Part shown: piece by piece, positions 13,143 through 50,888 of the stretch
Position numbering within the stretch: the stretch's first letter is position 1
How the letters are laid out: every line of letters starts with the position of its first letter
Source: Acidimicrobiia bacterium
GTDB taxonomy: Bacteria > Actinomycetota > Acidimicrobiia > Spongiisociales > UBA11373
Direction: 5' to 3'
DNA length: 64,000 nt
NCBI GenBank assembly: GCA_030584185.1
Contig: CP129495.1
Coordinates: 1,079,628-1,143,627, forward strand
Notes under the pieces: model-generated
What the model was told of the DNA's origin: nothing
Database searches by the model: none
The model's input: the letters and a program-made list of their open reading frames with translations, nothing else
Translations under genes and position numbers: made by a program

Positions 13143-13910
13143 ATGAGGATCACCGTCTGCGAGCTTCCCGCCGATCCGGCGCGCCTCGACCCGGCATGGG
13201 ATGGGCTGGTCGAGCACACCGCCGCCCACCGGCCCGACCTGGTGGTGCTGCCCGAGATGCCGTTCTACGCCTGGCTGGCGGCCAGCAGCGTCGTCGATGC
13301 CCACCGATGGTTCGCCGCCGTCGCGGCACACGAGGAATGGCTACCCCGCCTCGCCGACCTGGGTGCGGCGACGGTCGTCGCCACACGACCGGCGATGATC
13401 GGCGATGGGCCGCGCAACGAGGCCTTCGCCTGGACGCCGACCGGCTATCTGTTCCTCCATCACAAGCGCCATCTGCCCGACGAGGACGGCTTCTGGGAGG
13501 CCTCCTGGTACGAACGGGGGCCGTCCGAGTTCGTCGCCGTCGACACGCCGGCGGGGAGGCTGGGGGCCATGGTGTGCACCGAGATCTGGTTCACCGACCA
13601 TGCCCGGAGCTACGCCCGGCAGGGCGTCGACGTCGTGGTGTCGCCGCGGGCGACCCCGTGGTCGAGCCGCGGCCGCTGGCTGGTGGGTGGCCGGGCGGCG
13701 GCGATCATGGCCGGAGCGTTCTGCGCCTCCTCCAACCGGTCCGGAACGGGCGAGGACGCAATGCGCTGGGCAGGCACGGGCTGGGTGATCGACCCCGAGG
13801 GTGATGTCCTGGCCACCACCGACGGGGACAACCCCTACGCCACCATCGAGGTGGATCTCGCCGCCGCCGAGGCGGCGAAGTCGACCTACCCCCGCTACGT
13901 GGAGGAGTGA
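13143..13910 (+). CDS. carbon-nitrogen hydrolase (nitrilase superfamily amidohydrolase)
   Basis: E-K-C triad context: VVLPEMPF, HHKRHLP, MVCTEIWF. Confidence 0.8.
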   Translation: MRITVCELPADPARLDPAWDGLVEHTAAHRPDLVVLPEMPFYAWLAASSVVDAHRWFAAVAAHEEWLPRLADLGAATVVATRPAMIGDGPRNEAFAWTPTGYLFLHHKRHLPDEDGFWEASWYERGPSEFVAVDTPAGRLGAMVCTEIWFTDHARSYARQGVDVVVSPRATPWSSRGRWLVGGRAAAIMAGAFCASSNRSGTGEDAMRWAGTGWVIDPEGDVLATTDGDNPYATIEVDLAAAEAAKSTYPRYVEE

Positions 13911-13923
13911 GGTCGGGAACGGG

Positions 13924-14574
13924 ATGGTTTCACGTGCGCCAGACTTTGCCAGGCATGCTACGGTTCCGGCGATGGTGGCGAGGCGCCCCCTGGTGGCCGT
14001 ATTGGGGCTGGAGCCAGCGTTCACTGCTGGCCTCGAATACGCCGCTCAAGATCGATTCTGTGTCGTGACCACTGGGCAAGCCGCGCTTGGAAGTGTTGAT
14101 CGCTTCCTCGCTGCCCTTGCACTGGACTCAGCCGGGGACAACGGCCTCGCCACGCTCGTCGCCCGGTTTGATCCGAAGCCGGTGGTTGCGATCACAAGGG
14201 AGGACGACCCGAGCCATTGGGTGGAGGTGATGGCTAAGGGTGTCGCCGGTATAGCCCCATACGCCGATACTCCCGAAGGCATTCTGGACGTACTGAGCCA
14301 CTCGCTCAGGGGTATGTTTTTGCTCCCCGTCGGCATCCTCAGGTGGGTCGTGGATCGGGTACATCAACCTCCATCAGGACTCCTGTCCGACCGCGACACC
14401 CGAGTGCTCGTCAGGCTGGCCCGCGGCGACACTGTTGCAGACGTGGCGACCGCCGAGGCATGTGCCCCCCGGACGATGCATCGCATGCTCGCTCAGCTCT
14501 ACGCCAAGATCGGGGTCGATCGTATTGACGGCGCCCGGCGACTGGCGATCCGATGGGGGTTCGCAGATGACTGA
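13924..14574 (+). CDS. LuxR-family transcriptional regulator with N-terminal receiver-like domain
   Basis: C-terminal GerE/LuxR HTH (LSDRDTRVLVRLARGDTVADVATAEACAPRTMHRMLAQLYAKIGV); start at MVSRAPDF; stop overlaps next gene (ATGA). Confidence 0.7.
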   Translation: MVSRAPDFARHATVPAMVARRPLVAVLGLEPAFTAGLEYAAQDRFCVVTTGQAALGSVDRFLAALALDSAGDNGLATLVARFDPKPVVAITREDDPSHWVEVMAKGVAGIAPYADTPEGILDVLSHSLRGMFLLPVGILRWVVDRVHQPPSGLLSDRDTRVLVRLARGDTVADVATAEACAPRTMHRMLAQLYAKIGVDRIDGARRLAIRWGFADD

Positions 14575-15655
14575 ACCTGGACGCGCTCGCAGCGCAGCGA
14601 CCAAGCGCGCTCTCGGCGCGATCGCACTCTCCGGCGTTGCCGCGGCCGCCGGGTTCTGGGCCGGTCGGATCGTGTTCCTGCCCCCTTCCGATCCGCTGGA
14701 CGACACTCCCGAGCCCATCACATATACAGTCGCCCAAGGTGAACTGGAACGATCATTGCGATTCACCGCCGTCGCCGAGTGGCGACTCATTCCGACGGCG
14801 CGCAATGCCAAGCAGGGGGTCGTGACCACGGTCGAATTCCACTCGGGTGGTGTCGCAACGCCAGGGCAGATCATCTGCACTGTCGACCTACGACCCATCG
14901 TCGTGGCGGAGGGCAAGGTCCCGGCCTTCCGTAGCATGTCCCTCAACGCACGGGGTGCCGATGTCGCGCAGCTGCAGACCTTCCTTGCCGACCTCGGACT
15001 CTTCACACAGGAGTCCGACGGCGTCTTTGGAACGTCAACCCGTGCCGCGGTGATGGAGTGGCAGCGGATGCTCGGCGTCCGTGCCGACGGGATCGTGGGT
15101 CTGGGCGATGTGGTATTCGTCCCGACGCTACCCGCCCATCTCACCCTGGACCCCAACTTCGTTCCAGGCACGCCGTTGGCCGGCGGTGAACCCTTCCTCT
15201 CACTGGTCCCGGACGCTCCCGAGTTCCGCGTGCCGCTCGCCCAAGAGCAACTGAGGCTCGTCCCCCTCACCGCTCAGGTCCGCGTGAGCTACGCGGACGG
15301 TGAGTGGAGCGGGAGGATCGAGCAAGCGGTTGAGGATTCGGGCACCAACCTCGTCAATCTCCTGCTCACGGCGGAGGACGGCGGTCCAGTGTGCGGCGGG
15401 AATTGCACTCGTTGGGTCGACCTGGGAGCACCGACCGACTTTGACGTCGAGATCGTCGTGATTCCACATACCGTGGGCCCGGCGGTGCCCGTGGCGGCCA
15501 TACACTCCGATGCCGGCAATCAAACCTATGTCATCACCTCGGATGGGACCCGGATCGACATCACCGTCGTGGTGGCCGCGAAAGGGATCGCAATCGTCGA
15601 AGGCCTCGACCAGGGGACGGTGATCGCTCTGCCGATTGTCCCGGTGGGGGGCTGA
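14567..15655 (+). CDS. HlyD/MacA-family periplasmic adaptor with embedded peptidoglycan-binding (PG_binding_1) domain
   Basis: N-terminal TM anchor (ALGAIALSGVAAAAGFWAGRIVFL); PG-binding repeat GADVAQLQTFLADLGLFTQESDGVFGTSTRAAVMEWQRMLGVRADGIVG; beta-barrel/lipoyl-like adaptor remainder; translationally coupled to ABC ATPase. Confidence 0.7.
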   Translation: MTEPGRARSAATKRALGAIALSGVAAAAGFWAGRIVFLPPSDPLDDTPEPITYTVAQGELERSLRFTAVAEWRLIPTARNAKQGVVTTVEFHSGGVATPGQIICTVDLRPIVVAEGKVPAFRSMSLNARGADVAQLQTFLADLGLFTQESDGVFGTSTRAAVMEWQRMLGVRADGIVGLGDVVFVPTLPAHLTLDPNFVPGTPLAGGEPFLSLVPDAPEFRVPLAQEQLRLVPLTAQVRVSYADGEWSGRIEQAVEDSGTNLVNLLLTAEDGGPVCGGNCTRWVDLGAPTDFDVEIVVIPHTVGPAVPVAAIHSDAGNQTYVITSDGTRIDITVVVAAKGIAIVEGLDQGTVIALPIVPVGG

Positions 15656-16290
15656 TGATCGAAGTCGAGGATCTGTCGTTCGGGTACCGGCGGACACAGC
15701 CCATCCTCGAGCATCTCTCTTGGTGCATTCCTCCGGGTCTGATCTCCGGGGTGACCGGTCAATCGGGGTCGGGCAAGTCGACATTGCTGTACATCCTCGG
15801 CCTTCTGCTGTCTCCCTGGAGCGGAAGGATCGTCGTTGACGGCGAGGACGTCGGCGCAGCATCTGACGGCGTCAGATCGCAGATCCGAGCGCGGCGAATC
15901 GGCTTCGTGTTCCAGGACGCCGCCCTTGATCCAACCAGAACGGTCGTCGACAACATCGTCGAAGGATCCCTCTACTCGGGAATGGGAAGAAGGCGGGCGA
16001 TCCGGCGTGCCCACGAGCTCTTGGAGAAGTTCGATGTCGGGTTGCGCGCCGAGCACAGGCCGGGCGAGGTGTCGGCGGGCCAGGCTCAGCGCGTCGCCTT
16101 GTGCCGAGCGCTGCTCCCAGAACCACGCATCATCCTGGCAGATGAGCCGACCGGCAACCTGGACACGGACACCGCTGCGGTGGTGCTGGCAGCGTTGAGA
16201 TCGCTCTCCCATGGTGACGGCGCCACCGTCGTCATGGTCTCACACGACCCGACAGTCGTGGTCGCGTGCGATCGAGTGCTGACGCTTTGA
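15655..16290 (+). CDS. ABC transporter ATP-binding protein (MacB/LolD-like)
   Basis: Walker A GQSGSGKST, Q-loop, signature VSAGQAQRVA (SGGQ variant), Walker B IILADEPTGNLD. Confidence 0.85.
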   Translation: MIEVEDLSFGYRRTQPILEHLSWCIPPGLISGVTGQSGSGKSTLLYILGLLLSPWSGRIVVDGEDVGAASDGVRSQIRARRIGFVFQDAALDPTRTVVDNIVEGSLYSGMGRRRAIRRAHELLEKFDVGLRAEHRPGEVSAGQAQRVALCRALLPEPRIILADEPTGNLDTDTAAVVLAALRSLSHGDGATVVMVSHDPTVVVACDRVLTL

Positions 16291-17384
16291 GGGTCATCAG
16301 GTACGCTCTGGAGTCGGCACGGGTGGCCCGAAGCCAACCGGTGTCCTCCGTCGTGACGATGCTCGTCGTCGGAAGTGTGTGCGCGGTCATCCTCTCCACG
16401 ACGGGACAGACCGAGGCGGCAGAACGCCAGGTGATCGCCCGCATCGATGAGGCCGGGACTCGATCGATCGTGGTCACCGACGTTCAAGGCGGAGCCGGAA
16501 TCCCTCCTTCGGCGGTCGGGCGTATCGAGCGCCTCGCCCACGTGGAGTGGGTGATCGGGCTGGGTACCGCCTTCGATGCTCGACCAGTCGGAGTGCCCGG
16601 CGGAACGCCGATCCCCATCCGCTTCCTCTACGGCGACATACCACCGGTGGTCGAGATGTCCCCATGGACCCGCGACATTGGAACGGTCGTCATCGGGCCA
16701 GAAGCCCAAGCAACCCTCGGACTGCTGGTCCCGGCCGGAGGTGTCGTCACCGGCAACGATGACCACCTCGCGGTCGTCGGATCGTTCCACCCCTCTGAGC
16801 CATTGGCCTTCCTCGAGCAGTCCGGTCTGGCAGCCCCGGACCCGCACGACGAGCTGCCATGGGTACGTACCATCTTCGTATCGGTGGAGCGGCCAGAAGA
16901 CGTCACGTCGGTGACGCAAGGAGTCCTCATGGTCCTCGGGGCCAACGACCCGACCCAGGTGTCAGTCGAAACGTCGAGCAACCTCGCGGCGGTCCGGGCT
17001 ACGGTGGAGGGTGAACTCGGCTCGTTCGGTCGCAACCTCGTGCTGATGGTGCTCGGAGCGGGAATCGTGTTGGTAACGCTCACAACCTACGGGTCGGTGA
17101 CGGCAAGGCGTAAGGACTTCGGACGCCGCCGAGCTCTGGGGGCAGAAAGGGCAACGATCATCGCCCTGGTGACGCTTCAGGCGACAATCACTGGGAGTCT
17201 TGGTGCGGCCCTGGGGTCGCTCATTGGTGGCGGCATCGTTTGGAGGCTCACCGGTGAGCCCCCGAACGCCGGATTCGCAACGGCGGTGGCCACACTCGCC
17301 ATGCTGGCCACGATCATTGCTGCCGCACCGCCAGCGATGATCGCTGCTCATCGAGACCCGATCAGGGAACTGCGAGTGCCCTGA
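16266..17384 (+). CDS. ABC transporter permease, FtsX-like
   Basis: GTG start overlapping ATPase stop; N-terminal TM, large extracytoplasmic domain, C-terminal 3 TM helices (LVLMVLGAGIVLVTL ... LGSLIGGGIVW ... LAMLATIIAAA) typical of MacB/FtsX permeases. Confidence 0.75.
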   Translation: MRSSADALRVIRYALESARVARSQPVSSVVTMLVVGSVCAVILSTTGQTEAAERQVIARIDEAGTRSIVVTDVQGGAGIPPSAVGRIERLAHVEWVIGLGTAFDARPVGVPGGTPIPIRFLYGDIPPVVEMSPWTRDIGTVVIGPEAQATLGLLVPAGGVVTGNDDHLAVVGSFHPSEPLAFLEQSGLAAPDPHDELPWVRTIFVSVERPEDVTSVTQGVLMVLGANDPTQVSVETSSNLAAVRATVEGELGSFGRNLVLMVLGAGIVLVTLTTYGSVTARRKDFGRRRALGAERATIIALVTLQATITGSLGAALGSLIGGGIVWRLTGEPPNAGFATAVATLAMLATIIAAAPPAMIAAHRDPIRELRVP

Positions 17385-17834
17385 GAGCGCTTCGGTTGCA
17401 CGACCCAGGGGAACCTCGGGCGGAGTGATGCACCTGCCCCTCGGGAACGGCGGTGGCGCGGGCCACGGCCATGTGCAACACGTCGACGACAAGCTCGACG
17501 CCAGCACGGTCACCATGGACAATCCCAGGATGTCCCGACGACTCAGATCCTAGGTTCCAGCGACATGCAGCGGATCCTCGCCGGCAGGAAACTGGGCCAG
17601 GCACGCCACGCGCCGTTGGTCGGGCCCGTCGGCGGTGAGGTTCTGAACCAACAAGGCAGCAGCCGTGGCGATGTCGGGACGCCGCCACCGCCACTTCTTG
17701 CGGAAAAGCACCCACACCGGGCCGCTTCTTGCCATCGACCGAGCCACCCGGCTCTGGCTCACCCCGAAACCCCGGCGGGCTTCCCCCCCGCTTCTCCGAA
17801 CACTTGGCCTGTGGGCCCCGAGAGAGGAGAAGTC

Positions 17835-18437
17835 GTGCCTGCACCTCATCCACCTGAGTTCCGCCAGCGGGCGGTGGAACTGGCCCGGGAGGGCTCGAGG
17901 CCGATCGCCCTGGCTGCCCAAGACATCGGGATCTCGGAGTCGTGTCTTGGTATCTGGCTTGTCCACGCCGATGTCGACGAGGGGAAGCGGGGGGTCTGTC
18001 GACCCCGGAGCGGAGAAACTGGCCCGGCTCCGCAAGGAGAACCCGGTGCCCAAGATGGAGCGTGATCTACTCTCTCGGGCCGCAACCTTCTTAGCCTCGG
18101 AGAATGCCCTGCCGAAGTGATCAATCGGTTGATGGACGCGAACAAGGCCGACTTTCCGAGCCGGTTCATGGCCGAGCGGCCGGAGGTGTCCACCAGCGGG
18201 TTCCATGACAGGCGGGCACGGCCGTGTGATCCCGCGGCTCGAACGATCGCCGATGCCGCCTTGAGCGTGCTGATCATCGAGATCCAGGATCGATCCCGGG
18301 GCACCTACGGGTCGCCTCGAGTGTGGACCGACCTCAGGTTGGGTCTGGGGATTCGGGTTGGTCGTGAGCGGGTCGAGCGGCTGATGCGTCACGCCGACCT
18401 GGCCGGGATGACGGGGATGTCCGATCGTATCGTGTAA
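17835..18437 (+). mobile_element. IS3-family insertion sequence remnant (frameshifted orfA plus truncated orfB N-terminus)
   Basis: GAGAGGAGAAG RBS then GTG 17835; orfA HTH PEFRQRAVELAREGSRPIALAAQDIGISESCLGIWL; frame switch to KLARLRKENPVPKMERDLLSRAATFLASE (IS3 orfA leucine zipper); orfB fragment 18117..18437 with HTH_21-like YGSPRVWTDLRLGLGIRVGRERVERLMR but no DDE core. Confidence 0.65.
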
Positions 18438-18630
18438 GCGGTCCGGACCTCTACCCGATAGGAGACCACGATGACCAAGCCAGACTCCGAGAGCGAGGAG
18501 CGTCGCCGGCGCCAGAGCGAGATCGCCGATTCGTTGAAGGAGTCCGGGGCGCTTCTTCAGATCTTCGCCCGGATCGACGCGGGGGAACTCCTGACTGGTC
18601 ATGTCCCAGGTCCTCAACGAGACCCCGTCG

Positions 18631-19311
18631 CTACGGCCCGAGACCGGCGCCGTAGTCGTGCGGGCTCTGAGGGCATCGAGCCTCGAGTTCGGACGACGTG
18701 TTGCTGACATACCGCCAGGGAACCCATTCGACGTCGGGATAGTTCTCGACGAACGAATCGACCGACGGCGGGTCCGGAATGTCGTAGCCTTCTGCCTCGA
18801 GGCATGGCTTGAGTACGTCGACCCAGAACGTGTAGATGTTCTCTACTTCGACCCCTGACTCGACCCCATACTCTGGAATGCTGAGACCGGCGACACATCT
18901 CGCGAAGCCGACCTGAGCCGCTTCGTTCTGTTCGAAAGGTATGGCCAGCCACGAGATTCCGGTATCTCCGATAGGCTCCACAGGCCAGCCCTGGTCGCGC
19001 ATGCACGCTATCTCGGCCGCTGTGACGAGGCCCCAAGGGACCTTGGAGTACGGGTAGGCTGAGTAGTCGCCATAGCCGTAGATCGGATCGACCTGTTCGA
19101 TCAAGACCTCGAATGGTGGGAGGCTGGAAGTTGCCTCCTCTCTCTCGCTGGTGGGGAGAAAGGTCGCGTTCGGATCAGACTGCTCGACACCGACTGTGGT
19201 CGCGGTGCCACCTTGTCCGATACACGCCGCTCCAAGGACTATCACGGCAATCGATCGCACGGTCGCCGTGATCGGCCGACTGGCGAGGCGTTGCCAAGTC
19301 TTCCTTTTCAC
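18631..19311 (-). CDS. hypothetical lipoprotein (Trp/Tyr/acidic-rich)
   Basis: signal peptide MKRKTWQRLASRPITATVRSIAVIVLGAAC; located in lower-GC island; overlapping antisense ORFs 18471..18707 and 18601..18858 judged less likely. Confidence 0.45.
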   Translation of the reverse strand: MKRKTWQRLASRPITATVRSIAVIVLGAACIGQGGTATTVGVEQSDPNATFLPTSEREEATSSLPPFEVLIEQVDPIYGYGDYSAYPYSKVPWGLVTAAEIACMRDQGWPVEPIGDTGISWLAIPFEQNEAAQVGFARCVAGLSIPEYGVESGVEVENIYTFWVDVLKPCLEAEGYDIPDPPSVDSFVENYPDVEWVPWRYVSNTSSELEARCPQSPHDYGAGLGP

Positions 19312-19356
19312 GGCGCTGCATCCATTCCAATCCAGTGATGGAGTGCTGTCTCCGAC

Positions 19357-19674
19357 TCAATAGCAGTAAGAGAAGGTAAGCCCATAGTTCATGTACCCGT
19401 TGGTTTCCGCCTTCCATGATGTGCTCTGCAGACCGCTCAACGAGTAGCGTGCCTGGAGGAACACGCCATTGTTGTAGGTCCCGATCAGGTGACCGAGCGG
19501 GGCGTAGTGCCTCGTGGGGCCCGTCGTCTCCGACGTGACCCCCACATACCACGAGGCGGGGCAGCTTCTGGTTCCCTGCTTCGAGCCAGTGGCCATGGCT
19601 GGCACGGCCGAGAGAAACGCCAACAGGACGACACCCACCGTCAGTCTTGAACCAAGTCGAGATCTCGAATGCAT
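19357..19674 (-). CDS. small secreted protein, 2 Cys (putative disulfide), unknown function
   Basis: GGGAGG RBS 7 nt upstream; Sec signal MHSRSRLGSRLTVGVVLLAFLSAVPAMA; ~76-aa mature Tyr/Asn/Gly-rich beta-type composition, Cys near both ends (SCPASW ... FSYCY-stop); region GC ~55% vs ~70% genome. Confidence 0.5.
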   Translation of the reverse strand: MHSRSRLGSRLTVGVVLLAFLSAVPAMATGSKQGTRSCPASWYVGVTSETTGPTRHYAPLGHLIGTYNNGVFLQARYSLSGLQSTSWKAETNGYMNYGLTFSYCY

Positions 19675-19979
19675 CGATCAACCTCCCATTCTCGTCAAGC
19701 CATTCCCTGCTCAAGCTACGCCAAGATCGCGAGCGATCGCAATGACAATCGGTGGCGGCCGGACCGACGCCCATCGGCAGTAGCGCCGTCACCGGGTTCT
19801 TGAGAAACGGCAGCCGGGGAGTGTGTGCCACTGACGGACCGACCCGCATGGTCCGAGCACTTCGCGCTGGCTGTTGGCGAGCACTCGCGTGGGACATGGA
19901 GTGCAGTAGACGCACCTGGTCTTGGCGTCTTCCCCAAACCGCCGCGGCGCGTCTTGGCCAGAGCGGGTCGGAGGCATGG

Positions 19980-21245
19980 ATGACCGGCCGCAGCGCCTCT
20001 AGCCTCGCGGGCGTGACCCGGCGACTGACCGTCCTCCTCGGCATGATCCTGGCTCTCGCCGCCTGCGGCGACGACGGCGCCGACACCACGACCTCGGCTC
20101 CGACGACCACCGAGCCGCCGGCGACCACCACCACTCTTGGAGGAACCACCACCCCGGCGCCGGACACGACTGCCACGCTTCCCACGACGCCCACGACCGT
20201 GCCTCCCCCGCCGCCTCTCGGCGAGGTGGGGATCGCCCTGGTGCCCGTCGCCGCCGGCCTCTCCAACCCGGTGCTCGTCACCGCCCGTACCGGCGACGAC
20301 CGGCTGTTCGTCGTCGAGCAGCCGGGGGTGGTGCTCGCCCTCACCCCAGGAGGCGACCGCGAGACGATCCTCGACCTCCGTTCCCGGGTGGAGTACGGAG
20401 GTGAGCAGGGCCTGCTCGGACTCGCCTTTCACCCCACCGACCCGGACCGCACCTTCCTCCACTACAGCGCCGCCGGAAGCGGCGACACGGTCCTAGAGGA
20501 GTTCGACCTCACCACCGGCGAGTCGGTGGGAGTGGTCCTCACCGTCGCCCAGCCGGCCGGAAACCACAACGGGGGGATGATCGCCTTCGGCCCCGACGGG
20601 ATGCTCTACGTCGGGCTCGGTGACGGGGGCGGCGCCAACGACCAATACCGCCACGGCCAGAACCGTGACAGCCTGCTCGGGGCGATCCTGCGCATCGACG
20701 TCGACTCGGCCTTCCCCTACGCCATCCCCGCCGACAACCCCTTCGCCACCGACGGTGGCGCCCCCGAGGTGTGGGCTTACGGCCTGCGCAACCCGTGGCG
20801 GTTCTCCTTCGACGGCGACGACCTGTGGATCGGTGACGTCGGCCAGGGCGAGTGGGAGGAGGTCTCGATGGTCTCCATCGACCAAGGCGGCCACAACCTG
20901 GGCTGGTCCGTCTACGAGGGGACTCACTGCTTCGGAGCGGCTGCCCTCTGTGTCCCCGACGGGTTCACCATGCCGGTGTTCGAGTACTCCCACGATGGCG
21001 GCCGCTGCTCGATCACCGGCGGGTACGTGTACCGGGGCTCCGCCGTCCCGGGCCTCGCCGGGGCCTACCTCTTCGGGGACTGGTGCACCGGTGAGGTCAT
21101 GGGCCTTCGGATAGGAGATGACGGCACCGTCGAACGTCGCGCCTTTTCGGTGGACGCCCCTCGGATCACCTCCTTCGGGGTCGGTCCCGACGGTGAGGTA
21201 TACCTGACTGCAGGCGACTCGGTGTTCCTGATCGTCGCAGGCTGA
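19980..21245 (+). CDS. PQQ-dependent sugar dehydrogenase (soluble glucose/sorbosone dehydrogenase family) lipoprotein
   Basis: lipobox LALAAC, Thr/Pro-rich linker, beta-propeller GSDH motifs (HNGGMIAFGPDGMLYVGLGDGG, YGLRNPWRFSFD). Confidence 0.8.
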   Translation: MTGRSASSLAGVTRRLTVLLGMILALAACGDDGADTTTSAPTTTEPPATTTTLGGTTTPAPDTTATLPTTPTTVPPPPPLGEVGIALVPVAAGLSNPVLVTARTGDDRLFVVEQPGVVLALTPGGDRETILDLRSRVEYGGEQGLLGLAFHPTDPDRTFLHYSAAGSGDTVLEEFDLTTGESVGVVLTVAQPAGNHNGGMIAFGPDGMLYVGLGDGGGANDQYRHGQNRDSLLGAILRIDVDSAFPYAIPADNPFATDGGAPEVWAYGLRNPWRFSFDGDDLWIGDVGQGEWEEVSMVSIDQGGHNLGWSVYEGTHCFGAAALCVPDGFTMPVFEYSHDGGRCSITGGYVYRGSAVPGLAGAYLFGDWCTGEVMGLRIGDDGTVERRAFSVDAPRITSFGVGPDGEVYLTAGDSVFLIVAG

Positions 21246-21432
21246 ACCGGCCCGCCCGCCGTGGTGACCGTGGTCGCTCGGTGACCCTTGTCGAGTGTTG
21301 GGGGTGGCCTGGCCCCCACTCCGAACCGCACTTGCTGGCTGTCGGCGGCTCGTGACCGTCGATCTGAAGGCGTGTGATGGTGAACGGGCATCCCCCCTTG
21401 CACTTTGTCATACGATCCGTATATTGCTCCGT

Positions 21433-21684
21433 ATGACAACCCCGGTGCCTACCCGGTTCACCGAGGCGGAACTCGCCCTCATCGACGAGCTCGTGACCAA
21501 GGGCATAGGAGACAGTCGATCGGCCGTGATCCGCCGAGGCGTTCACCACCTCGCCGACGCCGTTCACCGAGCCCAGATCGGTGCCGCCATCGCAGCGTCG
21601 TATCGGGAACGGCCCCAGGGCCCCGAGGACGACGCCCTTGCCATGTCCAACGCCATCGCGATGACCGAGGCGGAACCGTGGTAG
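21433..21684 (+). CDS. type II antitoxin, ribbon-helix-helix (CopG/MazE-like)
   Basis: 83 aa; MTTPVPTRFTEAELALIDELVTKGIGDSRSAVIRRGVHHL RHH fold signature; immediately upstream of MazF-like toxin. Confidence 0.65.
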   Translation: MTTPVPTRFTEAELALIDELVTKGIGDSRSAVIRRGVHHLADAVHRAQIGAAIAASYRERPQGPEDDALAMSNAIAMTEAEPW

Positions 21685-21989
21685 CCCAGACCGAGATCTG
21701 GTTGATGGAGACGCCCAACCAGAAGCGCCGACCGGTGCTCGTCATCTCGCGCGACGAGGTCATCCCGGTCCTTGCCAACATCATCGTGGCCCCCATCACG
21801 AGCACGATCCGCAACATCCCCACCTGTATCCCGGTCGGACCCGATGAAGGCATCGACCACGACAGCGTGGCCACATTCGACAACCTCGCCGCCGTGCCCA
21901 AATCGGTGCTCACCAGACGCCTCGGCAAGCTCGGCGCCGACGGACGCCGGCTCATCTGCGAGGCCCTCGCCGCAGCTGCCAACTGTTGA
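21678..21989 (+). CDS. type II toxin, MazF/PemK-family endoribonuclease
   Basis: GTG start overlapping antitoxin stop by 7 nt; VVAQTEIWLMETPNQKRRPVLVISRDEV ... IVAPITS matches MazF/PemK core (GEIWxVDL...RPVLVxS...VAPxTS). Confidence 0.75.
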   Translation: MVAQTEIWLMETPNQKRRPVLVISRDEVIPVLANIIVAPITSTIRNIPTCIPVGPDEGIDHDSVATFDNLAAVPKSVLTRRLGKLGADGRRLICEALAAAANC

Positions 21990-22268: not shown

Positions 22269-24626
22269 ATGGCACGCCTGCCGCGCGCACCGACGCTCTT
22301 GGTGGTGGTGCTCCTCCTCGCCTCCGTCGTTCCCACAGCCCTCGCCGAGGTGGGCTGGAGCCGTGCCGCCCGGTTCGGTGGCGACAACCAGACGGTGGCC
22401 TGGGCCTCGGCGATGGACCGGATGGGCAACGTCTACGCAACCGGCGTCCTCAACGGGACCGCCGACTTCGACCCTGGCGGCGGCACCTTCAACCTGACCA
22501 GCGCCGGCGCCCAGGATGTGTTCGTCGCCAAGCTCACCCCCGATGGTGATCTGCTCTGGGCGCACGCCATCGGCGGAACCAGCTCCGACGAGGGGATGGG
22601 TATCGCCACCGACCCGGCGGGGAACGTGTACGTCACCGGATACTTCATGGGCACCGTCGACTTCGACCCCGGCCCGGGCACGTCGAACCTCACCTCGGCA
22701 GGCGACCAGGACATGTTCGTCCTCAAGCTGTCCACCGACGGCGACCTGCTCTGGGCAAAGCGGATAGGCGGAGCGGGCGCCGACACCGGCTCCGCGATCG
22801 CGGTCGATCGCGGCGGCAACGTCCTCACCACGGGCTACTACACGGGCACCGTCGACTTCGACCCGGGCGCCGGTGAGGCCAACCTCCCCGGCGTGGGCGA
22901 CACCGACGCCTTCGTGTCCAAGCTCGATGCCGACGGGACCCACGTCTGGGCTCGACTCCTCGGCGGCACCGGGCCGGACGAGGGCATGGCGGTCGCCACC
23001 GACGCCGCAGGCAGCGTCTACTCGGCGGGCCGTTTCAGCGGCACCGTCGATTTCGACCCGAGCGGTGCAGTGAGCAATCGCACCTCGAACGGAGGGATCG
23101 ACGGCTACGCCTGGAGGCTCGACCCGGACGGGTACCTTGAGTGGGCCGCCCCGCTCGGCGGCGCCGGAGACGACACGGCGACGGCGATCTCGGTCGACCG
23201 TTACGACTTCGCCGTCATCGGCGGGAGCTTCGCGGGTACGGCCGACCTCGATCCTCATCCCACCGAGACCTTGAACCTGGTCTCCGCCGGCGGCCTCGAC
23301 GCCTTCCTCGTTCGGCTCGATCAGAACGGCGAGCTCTCCTGGGCCAAGCGCGCCGGTGGCGTCAACGACGACGAGGTCACCGGTGTTCACCTGGGCGGCG
23401 CCATCGAATCGGCGACCGCAACCGGCACCTTCTCGGGAACGGTCGACTTCGACCCCGGCCCCGACACCGCCTCGTCGGCCTCGGCCAATCCCGCCGGGTT
23501 CGTGTGGAAGCTGAGCGCTCTGGGCGACTACGAGGACCACGGGGCGATGTCGGGCACCGGAACCGTCCGATCCGAGGGCCTCGGCTGGGACGGCTCCGGC
23601 GGCTTCGCCGCCTCCGGCCGGCTCTTGGGGACCGCCGACTTCGACCCGGGACCGGGCGTGGCCGAACTCACGGCGAGCGGACCGCTCGATGCCTATGTCA
23701 CCACGATCGGAAAGCCGACACTGCTGACCCACATGGGCAGCAACCGCTACCACACAGCCTCCCTGGTGGGCTCCTGGGCATTCCCACGCGGCCCCAAGAC
23801 GGCTTTCGTCGCCGTCGGCACCAACTTCCCCGATGCCCTCGCCGGAGCGGCGGTGGCCGGCCTCTTGGATGCCCCCCTCTTCCTGGTCCGTTCCGACTCT
23901 ATCCCGTCGGAGACCCTCACCGGGATCACCAACATGGACCCGGACTCGATCGTCGTGCTCGGAGGGACCACCGCAGTCTCCCAGGTCGTGTTCGACCAAC
24001 TCACCGCCATCCAGACCAACACCGTGCGCGTCTTCGGGAGCAACCGCTACGCCACCGCGGTGGCGATCTCCCAGCTCGGGTTCCCGGCGACCGCCAGGAC
24101 CGTGGTGATCGCCACCGGGCTCAACTTTCCCGACGCCCTCGCCGCCGCGCCCGCTGCCGTCGTATACGGCGGTCCGGTGCTGCTCACCGATCCGAACACC
24201 GTCCCGCAGGTGGTGAGGGACGAGATCACCCGCCTGGCACCGGAACGGATTGTGGTCGTCGGCGGAACGGCGGTGATCTCCGACGATGTCGTGAACGCCT
24301 TGAAGGAGATACAGCCCAACACGGTCCGCATCGCCGGCGCCAACCGCTACGACACCGCCATCGGCCTCGCCCAGGACGCCTTCCCCGACGGTGCCAGCCG
24401 GGTGACGGTCGCCACCGGCCTCGCCTTCCCCGACGCCCTGGCGGGGGCGGCGGCGGCGGGGGCCTGGCGGGGGCCGATCCTCCTCGTCCCCGGGACCAGC
24501 CTCCCCGCTGCGGTGTCGACCGAACTCCTCCGTCTCGACCCGTTCCACGTCGACCTGCTCGGAGGGGACGCCGCGATATCGCCTCTGGTCCGCTACCAGA
24601 TCGGTGCCCTGCTGTTCGGCTGGTGA
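22269..24626 (+). CDS. secreted surface protein: SBBP beta-propeller repeats plus three cell-wall-binding repeat-2 (CWB2) domains
   Basis: Sec signal MARLPRAPTLLVVVLLLASVVPTALA; ~8 repeats of G-TVDFDPG-x-NLTSAG-DAFV-KL-DG-LWA (SBBP); C-terminal three repeats of GSNRY-TA-AIS...FP....V..ATG.NFPDALA (CW_binding_2). Confidence 0.75.
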   Translation: MARLPRAPTLLVVVLLLASVVPTALAEVGWSRAARFGGDNQTVAWASAMDRMGNVYATGVLNGTADFDPGGGTFNLTSAGAQDVFVAKLTPDGDLLWAHAIGGTSSDEGMGIATDPAGNVYVTGYFMGTVDFDPGPGTSNLTSAGDQDMFVLKLSTDGDLLWAKRIGGAGADTGSAIAVDRGGNVLTTGYYTGTVDFDPGAGEANLPGVGDTDAFVSKLDADGTHVWARLLGGTGPDEGMAVATDAAGSVYSAGRFSGTVDFDPSGAVSNRTSNGGIDGYAWRLDPDGYLEWAAPLGGAGDDTATAISVDRYDFAVIGGSFAGTADLDPHPTETLNLVSAGGLDAFLVRLDQNGELSWAKRAGGVNDDEVTGVHLGGAIESATATGTFSGTVDFDPGPDTASSASANPAGFVWKLSALGDYEDHGAMSGTGTVRSEGLGWDGSGGFAASGRLLGTADFDPGPGVAELTASGPLDAYVTTIGKPTLLTHMGSNRYHTASLVGSWAFPRGPKTAFVAVGTNFPDALAGAAVAGLLDAPLFLVRSDSIPSETLTGITNMDPDSIVVLGGTTAVSQVVFDQLTAIQTNTVRVFGSNRYATAVAISQLGFPATARTVVIATGLNFPDALAAAPAAVVYGGPVLLTDPNTVPQVVRDEITRLAPERIVVVGGTAVISDDVVNALKEIQPNTVRIAGANRYDTAIGLAQDAFPDGASRVTVATGLAFPDALAGAAAAGAWRGPILLVPGTSLPAAVSTELLRLDPFHVDLLGGDAAISPLVRYQIGALLFGW

Positions 24627-50421: not shown

Positions 50422-50888
50422 AGGAAAAGGTCACGGAGATCCGCCAGCGCACCGCCAAGGTGGCAGGTGCGGTGGGAACCTCCGCCAAGAAGGCCGCCTA
50501 CGCGGCCATCGGGGCACCGGCGGTCGCCCGTAAGCGCATCGCCGCCAACTCCGACAAGTGGCGCAAGGGCGTTCGCAGTGAGTTCGACACCTGGGTGGCC
50601 GCCGGTGAGCGGCTGACCACCGAGATGCGGGACGGCAAGATGGTCGAGGACCTGAAGGACAAGGTCGATCTCGACCAGCTGCAGGACCGCGTGGAGAAGC
50701 TGCGCGATCAGCTCGAGGACGTGCTCGCCGGCTGGCGCGCCAGTTTCATGCCCGAGAAGTCCGCCACCGCGGCGAAGAAGCCGGCGGCGAAGAAGCCGGC
50801 AGCCAAGGCTCCTGCCAAGGCCCCGGCGGCGAAGAAGCCGGCAGCCAAGGCTCCTGCCAAGAAGGCGAGCGCTGCCACCAAGTCCTGA
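50418..50888 (+). CDS. HbhA-like protein (coiled-coil N-domain plus Lys/Ala/Pro-rich C-terminal repeats)
   Basis: C-terminal AAKKPAAKKPAAKAPAKAPAAKKPAAKAPAKK histone-H1-like repeats; gene order XRE regulator then HbhA-like mirrors mycobacterial Rv0474-hbhA. Confidence 0.65.
   Translation: MKEKVTEIRQRTAKVAGAVGTSAKKAAYAAIGAPAVARKRIAANSDKWRKGVRSEFDTWVAAGERLTTEMRDGKMVEDLKDKVDLDQLQDRVEKLRDQLEDVLAGWRASFMPEKSATAAKKPAAKKPAAKAPAKAPAAKKPAAKAPAKKASAATKS

Follow-up and report, generated by a model that had tools for sequence, protein, structure and literature searches.

Gene content of the locus

A 64,000-nucleotide stretch of an Acidimicrobiia metagenome-assembled genome (MAG; assembly GCA_030584185.1, contig CP129495.1, positions 1,079,628 to 1,143,627), here called the window, contains a six-gene module made up of a regulator, an adaptor, an ATPase, a permease and, convergent with these, an operon in which a gene for a small secreted protein, S, is followed by one for an acidic lipoprotein, L (Table 1). 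The segment from which the analysis started, 17385-19720, runs from the stop codon of the FtsX-family permease gene to the start of S on the minus strand, and lies immediately downstream of the exporter as the original prediction had stated. That prediction had read the segment as a degraded IS3-family insertion sequence (IS), a 226-amino-acid (aa) lipoprotein, and a 105-aa precursor of a secreted protein of about 76 aa with a Cys near each end and a strong ribosome-binding site (RBS). All three descriptions held up, with 77 aa as the length of the mature secreted protein.

Table 1. Features of the S-L module and of the spacer between the permease gene and L (window coordinates).
Feature	Position	Strand	Evidence
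LuxR-type (GerE helix-turn-helix) regulator, 216 aa, atypical receiver-like N-terminus	13924..14574	+	Pfam GerE E=3.9e-4, below gathering score
Membrane-anchored adaptor-like protein, 362 aa, PG_binding_1	14567..15655	+	Pfam PG_binding_1 1.5e-13
ABC ATPase, LolD/MacB type	15655..16290	+	Pfam ABC_tran 6e-29; PDB LolD and MacB nucleotide-binding domains ~1e-36
FtsX-family (MacB-type, type VII) permease	16266..17384	+	Pfam FtsX 6e-11
Unassigned 450-bp spacer, FtsX stop to IS3 remnant	17385..17834		No Pfam or plasmid blastn match; absent from L001
IS3 orfA remnant, two frameshifts	17835..18120	+	HTH_Tnp_1 E=3.6e-4; blastn to Pseudonocardia transposase
IS3 orfB N-terminal remnant, without DDE domain	18117..18437	+	HTH_21 6e-16; NCBIfam IS3; blastn
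Unassigned 193-bp spacer, includes start of open reading frame 18471-18707	18438..18630		No counterpart in L001
L, acidic lipoprotein, putative immunity/binding partner; domains A and B	18631..19311	-	Lipobox, homologues
S, precursor of ~77-aa Sec-secreted all-beta protein, putative effector	19357..19674	-	Signal peptide, RBS, invariant Cys pair
Conserved motif CCACCGATTGTCATTG, candidate promoter or operator	19740..19755	-	Starts ~80 nt upstream of S start codon

The small secreted protein S

The ATG of S is preceded, 7 nt upstream, by GGGAGG. The N-terminus of the 105-aa precursor, MHSRSRLGSR-LTVGVVLLAFLSAV-PAMA/TG (the slash marks cleavage), has the n-, h- and c-regions and the AxA site (AMA) of a Sec signal peptide. 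When 1.84 billion cluster representatives were searched exhaustively with HMMER, 21 matches were obtained, 18 of them proteins of 97-123 aa with the same design and three of them repeat-protein artefacts. In the family A26 and A28 are nearly invariant and the AxA site is present in 19 of 20 members. The mature part of S contains Cys38 and Cys104, and every family member has exactly two cysteines in this part. C38, S48, W87, T100 and C104 are invariant, while G34, H56, P59, N69 and R76 are nearly so. The isoelectric point (pI) of S in the window is 9.0, and the family is mostly basic or neutral. An AlphaFold2 model built from 20 sequences predicts a seven-stranded all-beta mature part (pLDDT ~97) with the invariant cysteines on or beside the first and last strands, and a Cys38-Cys104 disulfide is probable on this model.

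S has no Pfam match at E<=0.1 and no NCBIfam match at E<=1. None of the 20 family members matches the Lactococcin_972 or TIGR01653 models, and a sequence-profile search of the PDB with the family and a PADLOC defence-system scan likewise gave no match. A fold search with the model found generic beta-sandwiches only, and the proposal that S is an MPT63-like protein was rejected. An Lcn972-like identity was also rejected, as it was borne out neither by the family models nor by structural similarity to the Lcn972 beta-sandwich. A search of metagenome contigs for S found a single contig, already among the known loci. The exact 105-aa sequence is recorded only from Logan assemblies, and in the NCBI record of this MAG S may be unannotated or annotated with another start.

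The motif CCACCGATTGTCATTG is common to the window and to the related loci L001 and L003 within an upstream sequence of S that is otherwise divergent. The window contains it a single time, and as no second copy was found there before the pump operon, shared regulation of S-L and the pump by this motif is unsupported. A scan for sigma-70 promoters and terminators gave nothing meaningful. A 31-nt direct repeat (26/31 identical) links 14499-14529, at the 3' end of the regulator gene, with 19716-19746 upstream of S, the latter copy overlapping the conserved motif at 19740-19755. It may be a chance match, about eight such 14-nt seed matches being expected per 64 kb by our own estimate.

The lipoprotein L and its domain A

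L has a PROSITE PS51257-type lipobox, SIAVIVLGAAC, with Cys30 as the lipid-bearing residue. The lipobox pattern is found in all 10 members of the L family with complete N-termini, and diverged relatives have LALTGC (L012), LIGC (the second L of L011) and LALASC (the L022 paralogue). Mature L has a pI of 4.05 and a net charge of -24. It consists of domain A (residues ~62-150) and domain B (residues ~150-220), and four cysteines are conserved beyond the lipid Cys, namely the invariant C103 and C139 and a further two in the C-terminal half. The structure model is confident over residues 61-220 and mainly helical. L is identical to WKZ83723.1 of an Acidimicrobiia MAG, and has no match in Pfam, NCBIfam, PADLOC or PDB sequence profiles, nor by fold.

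Domain A of L reads PIYGYGDYSAYSY...VPW...IACMRDQGWPV...RC.AGLNLPEY and recurs with 55-77% identity at the C-terminus of proteins of 281-291 aa (P0013-P0022). These have an N-terminal cytoplasmic segment, one transmembrane helix and a middle part that resembles FtsX_ECD (matched by seven members, at best with E=2.2e-6). In L008-10 their gene directly follows an extracytoplasmic function (ECF) sigma factor gene and overlaps the stop of this Sigma70_r2/r4 gene. L019 shows a second architecture, a 351-aa anti-sigma factor with the same terminal domain. The relatives thus combine an anti-sigma factor with domain A, whereas L of the window is itself a lipoprotein and not an anti-sigma factor. Because domain A also ends ECF anti-sigma factors, it appears to be a portable extracytoplasmic binding or sensor module. 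No S gene was found near the anti-sigma loci. The ECF sigma/anti-sigma pairs lie at 7561-8852 in L008 and 6495-8237 in L019, and L008 and L009 also have a PemK toxin gene within a few kb.

Linkage of S, L and the exporter in other loci

S followed by L is found in about ten independent loci, namely the window, L001-4, L005 (S truncated), L006/7, L015, L011 (two pairs), L012/13, L022 and L023, with S identity of 26-40% in the distant ones. The partners of S in L011 and L012 are homologues of L by hhalign (Prob 97.7 and 96.7, respectively). Homology to L was not shown for the second gene of L014 (Prob 26%), and this locus was left out of the count. Six of the loci (the window, L001, L005, L011, L012/13 and L022) also link S-L to the same PG_binding_1/ABC/FtsX trio, which bears out the tie between L, S and the neighbouring exporter suggested at the outset. 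The arrangement is convergent in some loci and co-directional in others, with S-L either upstream or downstream of the trio. Even in diverged lineages the pairing of S with L is strict, and the trio is usually their neighbour.

The closest parallel is L001, in which S and then L converge, as in the window, on the oppositely directed FtsX, ABC, PG_binding_1 and 201-aa regulator genes, the regulator being the most distant. L001 S is 76% identical to that of the window (BLASTP) and L ~60%. In L005, from another Actinomycetota MAG, L stands beside the same trio. A DDE_Tnp_1 IS has cut S there down to the final ~39 codons (501-704 and 20-562), with L and the ABC trio intact. The L/FtsX spacer of L005 measures 768 bp and holds two copies of a short open reading frame (ORF) with a NPYDELEAGWML motif. 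The gene order is S-L-PG_binding_1-ABC-FtsX in L012/13 and S1-L1-PG_binding_1-ABC-FtsX-S2-L2 in L011, where two S/L pairs flank the pump, FtsX-S-L-L' in L022 and S-L-S' in L023. The extra, strongly diverged paralogues (L011 5746-6579, S2-L2 after FtsX; L022 1612-2232, an L-like lipoprotein; L023 1116-1400, S) indicate arrays of cassettes. No pump genes are visible beside S-L in L006/7, L015 and L023, the last two being short contigs.

Between the window and L001 the ratio of non-synonymous to synonymous substitution (dN/dS) is 0.35 for S and for L, against 0.14-0.28 for the genes of the pump and the regulator. The regulator gene has a dS of 1.4, and the other five (S, L and the three pump genes) range from 0.77 to 1.1; as dS is near saturation, all these values are rough. 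By these ratios S and L are evidently real genes under purifying selection, and since dS is similar across S, L and the pump genes, the block seems to have diverged together under such selection. Within this organism the same module context was found in all 24 of 24 contigs from different runs. Taken together, the comparison of loci strongly supports a functional pairing of S with L that is tied to a MacB-type exporter.

Exporter and regulator

The FtsX-domain permease and its separate LolD/MacB-like ATPase are of the MacB type (type VII). The nearest solved chains to the permease are MacB (5gko), Streptococcus pneumoniae Spr0695 (5xu1_M), LolF and YtrF. Permeases of this MacB/Spr0695-like class clear peptides and toxins off the outside of the membrane. 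The adaptor-like protein has a weak match to TIGR01730 RND_mfp (E=0.04) and PDB matches that cover its peptidoglycan-binding region only. Its gene is kept beside S-L in L001, L005, L011 and L012. The regulator was called as a 216-aa gene in L021, has its 201-aa counterpart at the same position in L001, and shows a GC content at third codon positions (GC3) of 0.68.

Composition of the module and its surroundings

The mean GC content of the window is 0.689. In 300-nt windows it falls to 0.573-0.61 over 18600-19650, is 0.64-0.68 across the remainder of 13800-19950 and rises to 0.68-0.74 on both sides. The S gene has a GC of 0.591, the L gene 0.608 and the IS3 remnant 0.65-0.68. A dip to ~52-58% had been predicted at 17385-19720; the dip is real but milder, with a 300-nt minimum of 0.573. 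The GC3 is 0.68-0.79 in every gene from 13924 to 19674, and 0.875-0.914 in the flanking genes, which encode a CN_hydrolase and an aminotransferase upstream and a glucose/sorbosone dehydrogenase (GSDH) downstream. The atypical unit is thus not the 2.3-kb stretch of IS, L and S first delimited as an island, but, at ~13.9-19.7 kb by GC3, the whole regulator-exporter-L-S module of six genes, which extends over ~13.9-19.75 kb. The mosaic structure that had been read from small overlapping ORFs on the plus strand also fell away. ORF 18601-18858 runs antisense to L, a conserved gene, and ORF 18471-18707 has no family match above threshold (best in Pfam, DUF1263, E=0.034). Both were rejected as genes.

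The GSDH gene (19980-21245, plus strand), downstream of S, seems to encode a lipoprotein itself, in which a Thr/Pro-rich linker comes after LALAAC; its true start is probably later than that of the long ORF given from 19752. Just past it, at 21424-21989, lies a toxin-antitoxin pair, a ribbon-helix-helix antitoxin gene followed by a gene for a PemK/MazF-family toxin. Six copies of a tandem repeat of ~195 nt (65 aa) are found at 22425-23650 within a large gene. The product called for this gene in L021 has 785 aa and contains SBBP beta-propeller repeats and CW_binding_2. Short tandem repeats at 50772-50870 encode AKKPAA-type units rich in Lys, Ala and Pro, like those of Actinomycetota histone-like or HU-tail proteins.

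The IS3 remnant in the spacer between FtsX and L

The orfA remnant begins with a GTG at 17835, 5 nt after GGAGAAG, and by our reading of the sequence two breaks interrupt its frame near 17990-18015. The sequence typical of OrfA, DEGKRG / GLSTPER / EKLARLRKENPVPKMERDLLSRAATFLASE (EKLARLRKEN...), is readable only across three frames, and the HTH_Tnp_1 match scores 21.1 bits against a cut-off of 24.1. The orfB remnant overlaps the orfA stop, is 106 aa long and covers only positions 92-183 of the 369 of the NCBIfam IS3 model. It ends at 18437 and lacks the rve/DDE catalytic domain. A blastn search of plasmids gave matches to the two IS3 pieces only, to annotated IS3 transposases of Streptomyces, Iamia and Pseudonocardia. 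The stretches 17385-17834 and 18438-18630 had neither a plasmid match nor an above-threshold family match. No inverted repeats were found around 17.4-18.6 kb in a whole-window search (seed 14, minimum 30 nt; short inverted repeats were not specifically searched). The right end of the element is deleted. The piece is a dead fragment and not a functional IS, in keeping with the frameshifted orfA and the orfB of ~100 aa lacking a DDE core that had been described originally.

The spacer between L and FtsX is 1246 bp long in the window and 110 bp in L001, which has no IS. As L001 shows the same gene order with this short spacer, the IS3 fragment is a secondary, later and incidental insertion, and the possibility that it was the carrier that brought S-L was rejected, L001 keeping S-L beside the same exporter. 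Comparison of synteny in relatives, proposed originally as a check, therefore identifies the IS3 fragment as an insertion but does not do so for an S-L islet. An automatic call placed a 350-aa hypothetical protein antisense to the remnant (window ~17550-18602, minus strand; L021 8073-9125). It is almost certainly a spurious high-GC artefact, because it has no family match and overlaps the transposase frames.

Rarity of the module and signs of its mobility

L is found at three loci among 185,579 species genomes, and S in ~18 clusters among the 1.84e9 representatives. L011, L012 and L014 adjoin genes for a TrwC relaxase or a type IV secretion system coupling protein, L005 has an IS and a resolvase in its flanks, and the flank of L001 is what we take, from its sequence type, to be a DUF222-like fragment. 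None of the flanking genes of L001, L005 and L006 is present in the 64-kb window. The module also has a GC3 below that of the host genes in L001, L005 and L012. In these respects it shows signs of acting as mobile cargo. No flanking direct repeats marking the ends of an island were found in the window, save the 26/31 match of 14499 with 19716.

Proposed function and alternatives

Our preferred reading, held tentatively and at a little under an even chance, is that S is a Sec-secreted antibacterial protein, L a lipoprotein immunity factor and the MacB-like pump protective. The bacteriocin/immunity pair first suggested for S and L is thus still the best reading, and still one that we infer. S would be released via Sec as a ~77-aa protein of predicted beta-sandwich fold, able to diffuse and to attack competing cells at their envelope. 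Lipid-anchored on the outside of the membrane, L would bind and neutralise S at the surface of the producer. The pump, anchored to peptidoglycan through the adaptor, would expel S from the zone of membrane and wall for self-protection, release or both, and the LuxR-type regulator would control the pump.

A role in conflict is favoured over a housekeeping one because the genes are rare and patchily distributed, have conjugative neighbours and form duplicated, divergent cassettes, and because L005 has lost S but kept L while S and L evolve faster than the pump genes. Duplicated S/L cassettes and loss of S with L retained are typical behaviour of toxin/immunity loci. The charges of the two proteins are often complementary, S being mostly basic or neutral and L having a pI of about 4.

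Several observations weigh against this reading. Antibacterial activity, binding and expression are all putative for S and L. L has no similarity in sequence or fold to any known immunity protein, and S none to known toxins. The dN/dS of 0.35 gives no sign of diversifying selection, and charge complementarity is not universal, some S proteins being acidic (pI 4.6-5.8). In L006/7, S-L occurs without ABC genes in the ~8 kb downstream of L, on a contig that extends only ~2.4 kb upstream of S. As to mobility, the left edge of the module is 13 nt from the nitrilase-family (CN_hydrolase) gene, no tRNA gene or att sites were found in the window, and these data do not establish that the module was inserted here recently.

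The alternative that survives best, though we consider it rather unlikely, is that S and L assist the MacB-like machine as extracytoplasmic accessory factors, with a role in the cell envelope instead of conflict. S would then be a lectin-like binder of the wall or its precursors and L a surface partner that couples S to the FtsX-type permease, on the model of FtsEX, whose extracellular domain controls wall-acting proteins. The patchy distribution, conjugative neighbours and cassette duplication set out above argue for the antibacterial reading over this one.

It is very unlikely that S is a secreted signal and domain A of L its receptor, in a unit for cell-cell or stress signalling whose ECF anti-sigma variants sense the same class of ligand. 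The domain (PIYGYGDYS...CMxDQGWP...C.AGLNLP) does stand at the C-terminus of anti-sigma-like proteins encoded after ECF sigma genes, in two architectures (L008-10/L018 and L019), and a regulator belongs to the module. L, however, has a lipid anchor only and no transmembrane signalling part, the anti-sigma loci have no S gene nearby, the module encodes no kinase partner for the regulator, and duplicated S/L cassettes are unusual among signalling pairs. Finally, a recent 2.3-kb foreign islet of low GC, brought by IS3 and holding secreted-protein genes, unrelated or in decay, that have nothing to do with the exporter, would fit the adjacent remnant and the lowest GC of the region over L and S, but is improbable in the extreme, since S and L are intact, conserved, under purifying selection and paired with the exporter elsewhere, as in L001 without an IS, the lower GC3 is common to the whole module, and the remnant has a higher GC than S and L.

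The antibacterial reading can be extended to a wider proposal, which we regard as quite unlikely in its entirety. S and L would stand for a class of toxins not described before, beta-sandwich proteins exported by Sec, stapled by a disulfide and matched with dedicated acidic lipoproteins for immunity. They would be carried as swappable cassettes on conjugative elements of Actinomycetota, including Acidimicrobiia, together with a peptidoglycan-anchored MacB-type pump. Domain A would have been recruited as an ECF anti-sigma sensor, through which non-producers sense S-type toxins and switch on a defence regulon. Acidimicrobiia are abundant and almost wholly uncultured, and to our knowledge nothing is known of their means of competition. 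Literature searches turned up no account of this module.

If the antibacterial reading holds, S and L would make up a new family of protein toxins and immunity factors that resembles no known bacteriocin in sequence or fold and is coupled to a MacB-type pump anchored to peptidoglycan. Domain A would then be a possible instance of anti-sigma factors reusing an immunity domain as their sensor. Should S prove not to be a toxin, its strict linkage with L and the pump would still mark out an envelope module that is as yet uncharacterised. Two well-modelled small proteins of ~77 and ~160 aa are amenable to direct expression, and annotation is corrected for S, seemingly missing from the NCBI record of the MAG, and for the spurious 350-aa ORF antisense to the IS remnant.

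Comparison with known systems

Among mobile elements, the remnant resembles IS3 in its canonical order of an OrfA helix-turn-helix followed by an OrfB HTH_21, with orfB overlapping the orfA stop. It differs from a functional IS3 in that orfA is frameshifted twice, orfB ends after ~106 aa with no DDE/rve domain, and no terminal inverted repeats were identified at a search minimum of 30 nt.

The bacteriocins of the Lactococcin 972 family are Sec-dependent beta-sandwich proteins that bind lipid II and are accompanied by ABC-type immunity genes. S resembles them as a small precursor with a Sec signal and an all-beta mature part rich in Tyr, Ser, Thr, Asn and Gly, encoded beside ABC transporter genes. 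It differs in matching neither the family models nor the structure of Lcn972.

The exporter resembles the MacAB-like tripartite ABC pumps of Gram-positive bacteria (Spr0693-0695, YknWXYZ) in its MacB/Spr0695-like permease, its LolD/MacB-like ATPase and the adaptor-like protein encoded upstream, and also in its proposed role of protection against a secreted peptide or protein toxin. Bacillus subtilis YknWXYZ protects against the SdpC toxin, and the SdpC/SdpI/YknWXYZ system follows the same logic of toxin, immunity and pump as proposed here. The adaptor of the window, by contrast, is recognisable mainly through an inserted PG_binding_1 domain, and the similarity of the permease is confined to its C-terminal FtsX domain (E ~1e-3). 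We know of no S- or L-like partners of such pumps.

In lantibiotic producers, the lipoprotein LanI, the transporter LanEF(G) and LanRK work together, and the lipoprotein and pump have been proposed to cooperate at the outer face of the membrane (PMC8538875). The module resembles the LanI/LanFEG/LanRK sets (NisI/NisFEG, SpaI/SpaFEG) in placing a surface lipoprotein, a dedicated ABC transporter and a regulator beside the gene for a secreted antimicrobial, a role that is putative for S. S differs from lantibiotics as an unmodified, folded protein of ~77 aa exported by Sec and not a lanthipeptide. The permease is of the FtsX/MacB type with a peptidoglycan-binding adaptor and not an ABC-2-type LanEG, and L, which resembles NisI and SpaI neither in sequence nor in fold, is not recognisable as a LanI homologue. 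The logic of the module would thus match that of known lipoprotein-plus-ABC bacteriocin immunity sets, while its parts are two unrecognised protein families and a MacB-type pump, probably anchored to peptidoglycan.

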